A stretch of DNA of 64,000 bases from a virus: positions 32,001-96,000 of the IMG/VR virus record IMGVR_UViG_3300042307_001176; one strand, given 5' to 3'. The notes beneath the pieces were generated by a model. That model worked only from the letters and a program-made list of their open reading frames with translations. It made no database searches and was not told the origin of the DNA. A program made the position numbers and the translations under genes. Below are positions 59,340-60,106 of this stretch, in pieces (the first letter of the stretch is position 1; the number at the start of each line of letters is the position of its first letter).

Positions 59340-59347
59340 TATATTTG
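59340..59347 (+). promoter_or_regulatory. Bacteroidota -7 promoter element for tRNA operon 1
   Basis: TATATTTG matches TAnnTTTG. Confidence 0.6.
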
Positions 59348-59383
59348 TGAAACAAAATAACAAAGAGAACATATAATACTCAA

Positions 59384-59443
59384 ATGAACAAAACAATTAA
59401 CATATTACCTATATCATTAAGACCGTCGTCAAGACGATCCTAA
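59384..59443 (+). CDS. Putative attenuator leader peptide MNKTINILPISLRPSSRRS
   Basis: 19 codons enriched in ATA/TCA/TCG/AGA/CCG; stop overlaps the antiterminator arm. Confidence 0.7.
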   Translation: MNKTINILPISLRPSSRRS

Positions 59444-59510
59444 AGGTCCTATGTTAATAAAAAATAATCATTAACTAAACCGGGACCTTTAAAAGTCTCG
59501 GTTTTTTTTT
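59421..59510 (+). terminator. Attenuator: alternative 1:2, 2:3 (antiterminator) and 3:4 (terminator) stems
   Basis: taaaggtcct/gggaccttta versus aaaccgggac/gtctcggttt plus T9. Confidence 0.75.
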
Positions 59511-59512
59511 GT

Positions 59513-59524
59513 GTTCTTTGACAT
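59513..59524 (+). promoter_or_regulatory. boxA-like antitermination site
   Basis: GTTCTTTGACAT immediately before the first tRNA. Confidence 0.65.
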
Positions 59525-59540
59525 GTTGGATTATAAAATT

Positions 59541-59630
59541 GGAGAGTTGCCAGAGCCAGGCTTAATGGATCAGTCTTGAAAACTGACGTAGCGAAAGTTA
59601 CCGGGGGTTCGAATCCCTCACTCTCCGCCA
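59541..59630 (+). tRNA. tRNA-Ser(TGA)
   Basis: Cloverleaf, long variable arm, loop cttgaaa, encoded CCA. Confidence 0.95.
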
Positions 59631-59633
59631 ATT

Positions 59634-59707
59634 GGTCCCGTAGCTCAGCTGGATAGAGCAACGCCCTTCTAAGGCGAAGGTCGAAGGTTCGAATCCTTCC
59701 GGGATCA
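59634..59707 (+). tRNA. tRNA-Arg(TCT)
   Basis: Cloverleaf, loop cttctaa. Confidence 0.95.
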
Positions 59708-59874
59708 CACAAAGCCCTCTGCCTAGCGCTGGGTATGGATCGAAGATAGAATATGCCTCTACAACGTAGACAGTTAGAATATTTCGGTATTCTTTAATGA
59801 TATGCACACTTATTCTCTAAATCGTGGGTTAGCACAGTTTGTATGTTCTGGGGATATTTAAAGACATACAATTT

Positions 59875-59947
59875 CGGGATGTAGATCAGTTGGTAGATCG
59901 CCTGGTTTGGGACCAGGAGGCCGTCAGTTCGAGTCTGGCCATCCCGA
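59875..59947 (+). tRNA. tRNA-Pro(TGG)
   Basis: cctgg-tttggga-ccagg. Confidence 0.95.
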
Positions 59948-59954
59948 CATCAAT

Positions 59955-60028
59955 AGAGGCGTAGCTCAATTGGTTAGAGCACATGCCTTATACGCATGCG
60001 GTCACGAGTTCGACTCTCGTCGTCTCTA
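59955..60028 (+). tRNA. tRNA-Ile(TAT)
   Basis: catgc-cttatac-gcatg, full cloverleaf. Confidence 0.9.
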
Positions 60029-60032
60029 CTTA

Positions 60033-60106
60033 GGTCCCTTAGCTCAGTAGGTTAGAGCAACTGACTCATAATCAGTAGGTCCACGGTTCGAGCCCGTGAG
60101 GGACCA
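60033..60106 (+). tRNA. tRNA with CAT anticodon, probably Ile2 (lysidine) rather than Met
   Basis: actga-ctcataa-tcagt; 5' GGTCCCTTAGCTCAG resembles ileX-type tRNAs. Confidence 0.85.

Follow-up and report, generated by a model that had tools for sequence, protein, structure and literature searches.

A candidate leader-peptide attenuator in a phage genome whose codons match the tRNA genes downstream of it

Attenuators of amino acid operons can be multivalent: thrL senses threonine and isoleucine, and the ilvGMEDA leader senses isoleucine, leucine, and valine. The tRNA genes of phages are usually treated as constitutively expressed cargo, with codon usage or evasion of tRNA-targeting defences as the reason for their presence. 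We know of no earlier case of tRNA genes whose expression depends on how fast their own codons are decoded, and a literature search, which returned papers on classical attenuators and on phage tRNAs, found none on leader-peptide control of tRNA genes. Here, we analyzed a stretch of 64,000 nucleotides (nt), referred to as the window, which covers bases 32001-96000 of the IMG/VR virus record IMGVR_UViG_3300042307_001176 (154,411 bp, 33% GC). Based on its sequence, we consider it probable that region 59340-59528 of the window is a ribosome-mediated leader-peptide transcription attenuator gating a phage tRNA operon, and that it is one of three such elements in this genome.

Leader attenuators have been described for pheL (PMC3082878) and trpL (PMC6614838). 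Together with thrL, ilvGMEDA, and hisL, they share with the phage element a promoter-proximal short open reading frame (ORF) of regulatory codons, the succession of protector, antiterminator, and terminator, a U-run, the read-out of the ribosome position, and an antiterminator strand placed at the ORF end. They differ in what is regulated and sensed: amino acid operon attenuators act on biosynthetic enzymes or synthetases and respond to one to three amino acids, whereas the phage leaders would regulate tRNAs, list up to 16 codon classes, follow the isoacceptors in their synonymous choice, and carry a boxA after the terminator. There is no sequence homology between the phage leaders and the enterobacterial attenuators; an Rfam Thr_leader match over 59399-59511 remains sub-threshold (22.8 bits, E 0.59). 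T-box riboswitches of Firmicutes synthetase leaders are alike in sensing tRNA status and in switching a terminator/antiterminator in the 5' leader, but they recognize a single uncharged tRNA by direct binding, for which they use a specifier codon and the conserved T-box sequence and need no translation, whereas the phage leaders hold their codons in a conserved reading frame and would sample many tRNA species. A search of 58500-64000 for the T-box (RF00230) gave no match at E values up to 1. The Bacteroid-trp motif (RF01692) is a cis-regulatory RNA candidate of Bacteroidetes (PMC2864571). It precedes trp genes, has no sequence relation to the phage leaders, and was not detected here. If it is a Trp-codon leader, it would show leader-type attenuation in the likely host phylum.

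All sequence features that the original prediction had listed for 59340-60106 could be located (Table 1). The predicted promoter is followed by a leader ORF that ends in ATA TTA CCT ATA TCA TTA AGA CCG TCG TCA AGA CGA TCC TAA and by three alternative pairings. Two of these, the 2:3 antiterminator (TAAAGGTCCT, 59441-50, with GGGACCTTTA, 59482-91) and the 3:4 terminator (AAACCGGGAC, 59477-86, with GTCTCGGTTT, 59495-504, and nine T at 59502-10), were confirmed as proposed, as was the boxA behind the terminator (TGTTCTTTGACAT at 59512-24). The proposed 1:2 protector stem exists as well, though in another register: instead of gacc/ggtc, the minimum free energy (MFE) structure uses ATTAACATA (59396-404) with TATGTTAAT (59450-58) and ACCT (59407-10) with AGGT (59444-47), enclosing a CGTC/GACG hairpin that is possibly an RNA polymerase pause hairpin. 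With GGGACCTTTA common to both, antiterminator and terminator are mutually exclusive, and the antiterminator is sited where a ribosome at the stop codon would cover it. Segment 2 is the best duplex partner of the terminator 5' arm (-13.4 vs -5.9 +/- 1.9 kcal/mol for shuffles). Downstream of the leader, only tRNA genes are found and neither biosynthesis enzymes nor aminoacyl-tRNA synthetases, and the gap between the terminator and the tRNAs is too small for another promoter. The predicted Ser(UGA), Arg(UCU), Pro(UGG), Ile(UAU), and CAU tRNAs were all called; the CAU tRNA is not initiator-like and may be either Ile2 or elongator Met.

This arrangement suggests a switch in which segment 2 would pair either back with codons 5-9 (1:2) or forward with the 5' arm and loop of the terminator (2:3). 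Were the leader untranslated, 1:2 would form and the terminator would halt transcription; a ribosome quickly reaching the stop codon would cover segment 2, and the terminator would form as well. Stalling on ATA, TTA, CCT, TCA, AGA, CCG, or TCG would mask segment 1, permit 2:3 pairing, and lead to read-through, whereupon the polymerase would be turned termination-resistant at boxA and transcribe the tRNAs reading the stalled codons. The net effect would be negative feedback on tRNA supply. As the leader resembles a checklist of the codons of its own operon, the shortage of any one charged tRNA would open the whole block. Leader translation, stall-driven read-through, protection of the polymerase by boxA, and the negative feedback are all steps that we infer from the sequence.

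The original prediction had expected the fold to depend on the ribosome. For this comparison, the RNA was hidden as far as 12 nt beyond the A-site codon under study, and the remainder was folded. Leader 1 reproduced the trp-type logic in this simulation, with the terminator forming in the untranslated RNA and the antiterminator forming upon a stall: with the A site at codons 4-15, codon 13 excepted, the antiterminator resulted, and from codon 16 to the stop the terminator. The leader of the second tRNA operon showed the same switching, with the antiterminator for codons 3-21.

The order of promoter, ORF, antiterminator at the ORF end, terminator, boxA, and tRNAs is present before all three tRNA operons of the genome. 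At operon 2, the last stretch of the leader ORF contains segment GTGTCAGAGGA, which complements the 5' arm of the terminator found at 63745-63769 (-14.1 vs -6.3 +/- 1.8 kcal/mol for shuffles); the operon runs on past the window with a CAU tRNA, which is initiator-like (C1, GGG/CCC in the anticodon stem), and Leu(UAG). Unit 3 lies just past the window (locus L049) before a block of 16 tRNAs and starts with promoter box TACTTTTG. Its leader ORF comprises 35 codons; following the ATG, each of the first 29 sense codons is served by a tRNA of the leader's own block, and all 16 tRNA species of the operon are named, for which random codons of the same length give a probability of 6.5e-5. Leader 1 has a well-defined protector pairing, of which leaders 2 and 3 show no clear counterpart. 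All three leaders further hold a (G)ATATATAA / CATATAAT box between TAnnTTTG and ATG (59370-59377, 63605-63612, and L049:1240-1250), which may act as an additional promoter element or as a signal for translation.

To evaluate the match between leader codons and downstream anticodons, leader ORFs were called with a rule that ignored tRNA content: the longest candidate was taken that began with ATG, comprised 10-45 codons, and had its stop 30-85 nt ahead of the T-run. Across 15 representative pairs of leader and cluster, the summed own-cluster z was 33.5 compared with 1.4 +/- 5.1 for permuted pairs, a value reached in 0/100,000 permutations with relaxed or strict wobble. The 12 pairs from outside the phage family alone gave 23.4 vs 1.5 +/- 4.2 (0/100,000), and their coverage of the leader's own tRNA species was equalled in 7/100,000 permutations (p = 7e-5). 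The claim that leader codons match the downstream anticodons above chance thus holds for homologous and non-homologous loci. A competing explanation is a translation-coupled attenuator reporting general translational capacity or amino acid starvation, with the codon match as a by-product of phage codon preference. ATA, TTA, AGA, and TCA are indeed common codons in a phage of 33% GC, and, as known from trp and his attenuation, ribosome stalling cannot separate an uncharged from a missing tRNA. The match is, however, specific to own as opposed to swapped clusters under the same codon usage, and rare synonymous classes are chosen when the isoacceptor is encoded downstream: leader 3 picks Arg CGN (background share 0.11) and Ser AGY (0.27). 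Among Leu, Arg, Ser, and Ile codons, 45 belong to the isoacceptor class encoded downstream and 14 to the other, with 33.9 expected for the former (p about 8e-4). We therefore regard this explanation as unlikely.

Two codons of leader 1, TTA and CGA, had been noted as having no cognate tRNA in the cluster. For TTA this caveat dissolves because tRNA-Leu(UAA) belongs to the cluster in relatives: Ser, Arg, Pro, Ile, CAU, and Leu(UAA) form the cluster in 10/13 related loci with leader 1, and the phage of the window retains a truncated remnant of the gene, of which only the 3' third (T-arm and 3' acceptor) aligns to the intact gene of the relatives. With Leu(UAA) counted, 12/13 of codons 7-19 have a cognate tRNA in the cluster. 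Only CGA does not; it is part of the conserved CGTC/GACG hairpin (3' arm) and is read by Arg(ACG) of operon 3. Cluster and leader also vary together, since the related locus L012 has no tRNA-Pro in its cluster and no Pro codon in its leader.

Relatives were retrieved by means of the Ro60 protein encoded upstream of leader 1, which led to 48 viral contigs with 13 loci (11 distinct sequences) carrying a leader-1 homologue; an exact 27-mer of the leader gave no match in viral contigs. The homologues are 69-88% identical, with an invariant promoter box and invariant first transcribed bases, including TGAAACAAAA directly after the box. Leader 1 is kept in frame across the 11 distinct related contigs, and the ATG is kept in 10/11 of them, L006 having ATA. 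At this locus (L006:6992-7300, same contig as L094), the change of ATG to ATA coincides with loss of tRNA-Ser, Pro, CAU, and Leu, so that attenuator and operon appear to be decaying together. Five of the six indels within ORFs are multiples of three (3, 12, 3, 3, and 3 nt, with 3, 12, and 3 nt in relatives of leader 2), while indel lengths outside the ORFs are arbitrary; the remaining one, a 1-nt indel in the last codon of leader 1, shifts the stop 15 nt downstream.

The stems are likewise maintained through compensatory changes. All three pairings are possible in 12/12 sequences (1:2, -12.8 to -19.0; 2:3, -12.0 to -17.6; 3:4, -10.8 to -15.9 kcal/mol), and the inner hairpin of the antiterminator occurs as four different sequences, all of them paired (GTTAAT/ATTAAC, TAAGAT/ATCTTA, GTTAGTTT/AAACTAA, and TTGATAT/ATATCAA). 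Leader 2 of L010 and L038 has the terminator arms CCTCGG/CCGAGG in place of CCTCTG/CAGAGG, along with a change of its antiterminator segment to CCGAG, which represents a three-way co-variation; one terminator pair of leader 3 is U-A in 3 sequences and C-G in 6. As the MAFFT alignment of leader 2 under-counts pairs, L010 and L038 being off by one column in the terminator, we relied on per-sequence folding instead. Such patterns bear on the possibility of an ordinary or chance small ORF next to a leaky terminator, with the tRNAs arising from constitutive read-through and no switch at all. A terminator located immediately ahead of a tRNA cluster could serve to keep the basal level low, and some instances lack codon enrichment; against this stand the three-way co-variation, the strong codon/anticodon association, and the finding that leader peptides are unconserved between families even though the architecture is conserved. 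Moreover, the best partner of the terminator 5' arm lies within -33 to +15 of the leader stop in 18/18 instances, mostly well beyond shuffles. We judge a mere leaky terminator to be decidedly improbable.

The spacer between tRNA-Arg and tRNA-Pro of operon 1 (59709-59874, 166 nt) is 91-100% identical across 7 related loci, i.e., conserved above the leader, and missing from L005, L010, and L038. A search against Rfam gave no match for it, no credible tRNA could be recognized, and it lacks a stable fold (z +1.06).

Independent instances of the proposed attenuator were sought by scanning viral contigs for a T-run followed by a boxA-like motif. This resulted in at least 116 matches in at least 114 stretches; among the matches listed, 39 sit <200 nt before tRNA clusters of varied content, indicating a class of element and not a one-off. 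Leaders that cannot be aligned to those of the phage in the window still name their own tRNAs. Thus, L061 combines Leu-UAA, Glu, Glu, Leu-CAA, and Gln with the leader MKIINNILEVLEQLQEQLLMT, and L098 (Asp, Asp, Glu) has a leader including WDDDAEE. Further examples are L118 (Gly, Ile, Ser, His, Gln, Cys, and Trp; leader MKTSQHIMSFSNQSSNSICWNG...), L162 (Glu, Ala, Asp, Arg, and Thr; ...ITTADRTEAELTLR...), and L123, whose 11 tRNAs are all represented in the leader. The leader of L100 (MKNLFNILTLSLCTLSRRS...; downstream tRNAs Ser, Thr, and Cys) is similar to leader 1 but has Thr codons in the place of Pro codons and Cys codons in the place of Arg codons.

Each terminator is followed by the motif G[TCG]TCTTTGA[AC]AT, at a distance of 15-29 nt from the first tRNA. 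The 17-mer GTTCTTTGACATAYTGG is identical to an element in the 16S-23S spacer of Bacteroidota rRNA operons; its matches are mostly in Bacteroidota genomes, e.g., Pedobacter, Mucilaginibacter, and Chitinophaga, and in 4/4 loci checked with Rfam it lies between the spacer tRNAs and the 23S rRNA. The spacer boxA of E. coli rrn operons lies at that position. This identity supports the boxA call as well as a Bacteroidota host, with which promoters of the TAnnTTTG type and the absence of Shine-Dalgarno sequences are also consistent; phages carrying such attenuators probably infect Bacteroidota. As in rrn antitermination (NusB/NusE/NusA/NusG, with TGCTCTTTAACAA as the E. coli boxA), the element is placed before long untranslated RNA genes, but the phage boxA follows a regulated intrinsic terminator and precedes tRNA-only operons, and a role of Nus factors is a prediction here. 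None of 120 bacterial loci with the 17-mer, many of them on short contigs of rRNA-operon size, showed the layout of leader ORF and terminator; one stands after a short T-run, and one lies directly before tRNA genes on a 780-nt contig of a metagenome-assembled genome that is possibly phage-derived. A literature search with the boxA sequence string found nothing relevant. Two more distant Ro60-bearing phages (L018:1000-1140 and L022:3800-4000) have a boxA before tRNA clusters with no leader ORF or terminator, which marks the attenuator as an add-on of some lineages only. The boxA of L018 is preceded by a small boxB-like hairpin.

Several observations weigh against a tRNA-sensing attenuator. There is no Shine-Dalgarno sequence at the leader, so translation is deduced solely from frame conservation and codon content; the absence of this sequence is expected in Bacteroidota. 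Stalling also reports amino acid starvation, i.e., the signal is not specific for tRNA abundance. For codons 2-6 of leader 1 and for CGA, the reading tRNAs belong to operon 3, no enrichment is seen in L069, L104, L162b, and the Gln-only group, and related leaders are non-independent samples. Regarding the pairings, the leader-2 antiterminator of L010 does not outperform shuffles (z -0.8), and the antiterminator of leader 3 is weaker than its terminator at equilibrium, being the MFE structure only for stalls at codons 20-21. The switch of leader 3 would consequently have to be kinetic, as is that of the trp operon.

The fold of 59350-59520 is strong (-40.2 vs -19.5 +/- 3.4 kcal/mol for shuffles, z -6.2), and its 5' and 3' ends are paired in the window MFE. 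Given a TROVE/Ro60 gene 1.2 kb upstream of leader 1, these features could also be read as a free-standing structured RNA, be it a Y-RNA-like Ro60 partner, a trans-acting small RNA, or a T-box-like anticodon binder, the more so as terminated attenuator RNAs can act in trans in other bacteria (PMC6614838). A closed Y-RNA-like molecule was rejected, as the stem closing the 5' and 3' ends is not conserved in the relatives. Only tRNAs reach the Rfam gathering score in 58500-64000, with no match to Y RNA or T-box; Thr_leader, L20_leader, STnc240, and YrlA stay far below threshold, the YrlA hit (26.9 bits vs a gathering score of 69) lying over two tRNAs. In-frame indels and the conservation of start and stop point to translation, and better Y-RNA candidates are located directly upstream of the Ro60 gene. 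A free-standing RNA is accordingly the least credible of the explanations considered, and we hold it to be highly improbable; a trans role of the terminated leader would be compatible with attenuation.

Those upstream candidates are found in a 480-nt ORF-free stretch (56024-56505), which opens at 56024 with the boxA-like GTTCTTTAACAT, a motif kept in relatives together with its position upstream of the Ro60 gene. Repeated GA(A/C)GCGG...TTAC(T/A)TC units are present in this stretch, a candidate Y-RNA-like array (fold z -1.86) with no Rfam match. The Ro60 protein itself has no close relative in cultured phages (top match, Bacillus phage G, 51%), and blastn of 58600-61400 against cultured phages gave matches confined to the tRNA genes. 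Between operons 1 and 2 (60190-61416), genes for Lcl_C-like (under the Pfam cut-off) and PA14/GLEYA-domain proteins are present, i.e., carbohydrate-binding, adhesin-like modules.

In total, ARAGORN called 24 tRNA genes in the phage genome and a 25th at a relaxed threshold, arranged in three blocks. The latter is a divergent Ser(GCU) at genome position 97991-98077 (L049:1991-2077), beyond the window, between tRNA-Cys and tRNA-Ile(GAU). It was missed by default ARAGORN and by the Rfam gathering score, was recovered with ARAGORN -ps80, is syntenic with the canonical Ser(GCU) of L087, and is the tRNA for the AGT/AGC codons in leader 3. Together, the 25 tRNAs serve all 20 amino acids, with U34 anticodons predominating, and represent a near-minimal complete decoding set.

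Table 1. Features of the attenuators and their surroundings, with positions in the window
Feature	Position	Strand	Remarks
TROVE/Ro60-like RNA-binding protein gene	56506-58152		1.2 kb upstream of leader 1
Promoter -7 box TATATTTG	59340-59347	+	Bacteroidota-type TAnnTTTG; predicted promoter
CATATAAT / GATATATAA box	59370-59377	+	Between promoter and ATG; conserved in all leader-1, -2, and -3 alignments
Leader ORF 1, MNKTINILPISLRPSSRRS	59384-59443	+	19 sense codons; ATG 59384, TAA 59441-59443
Segment 1 (protector 5' strand), ATTAACATA..ACCT	59396-59410	+	Within regulatory codons; pairs with 59444-59458 in MFE
Small hairpin CGTC-loop-GACG	59424-59436	+	Inside ORF 1; nearly invariant sequence
Segment 2, TAAAGGTCC and TATGTTAAT	59441-59458	+	TAAAGGTCC, antiterminator 5' strand, overlaps stop codon
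Antiterminator inner hairpin	59453-59475	+	GTTAAT (59453-58) / ATTAAC (59470-75)
Intrinsic terminator and T9	59477-59510	+	10-bp stem, 8-nt loop
boxA TGTTCTTTGACATGTTGG	59512-59528	+	Putative rrn-type antitermination element
tRNA-Ser(UGA)	59541-59630	+	ARAGORN and Rfam
tRNA-Arg(UCU)	59634-59708	+	ARAGORN and Rfam
tRNA-Pro(UGG)	59875-59948	+	ARAGORN and Rfam
tRNA-Ile(UAU)	59955-60029	+	ARAGORN and Rfam
CAU tRNA, elongator type (Ile2 or Met)	60033-60107	+	ARAGORN and Rfam
Truncated tRNA-Leu(UAA) remnant	~60119-60167	+	T-arm and 3' acceptor
Promoter box 2 TACATTTG	63594-63601	+	Same box type as leader 1
Leader ORF 2, MKHFLNIATDFQLRKEDDLLEDRFKCQRK	63634-63723	+	29 codons; run GAG GAT GAC CTT CTA GAG GAT
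Antiterminator segment 2 GTGTCAGAGGA	63708-63718	+	End of ORF 2
Terminator 2 AAACCTCTG/CAGAGGTTT and T-run	63745-63776	+	
boxA 2 CGCTCTTTGAAAT	63782-63794	+	
tRNA-Glu(UUC) and tRNA-Asp(GUC)	63798-63955	+	Operon 2; attenuator unit 63594-63794

The three leaders and the near-complete tRNA set may be taken further as a self-regulating replacement decoding system, in which the attenuators would serve as counter-defence sensors of host tRNA destruction or withholding. An operon would then be switched on when host tRNAs for its codons are destroyed or withheld, e.g., by anticodon nucleases or tRNA degradation in infection. We put this forward as a tentative extension that is doubtful at present. Host anticodon nucleases as the trigger, as suggested by the original prediction, are speculation, and host codon-usage mismatch, host tRNA decay, or amino acid starvation would all yield the same signal.

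If the proposed attenuation of phage tRNA operons is true, it would represent a direct supply-and-demand feedback loop for translation capacity. Classical attenuation, which senses one to three amino acids, would be extended to leaders sensing as many as 16 codon classes each, and these leaders would constitute a compact natural sensor of tRNA availability.

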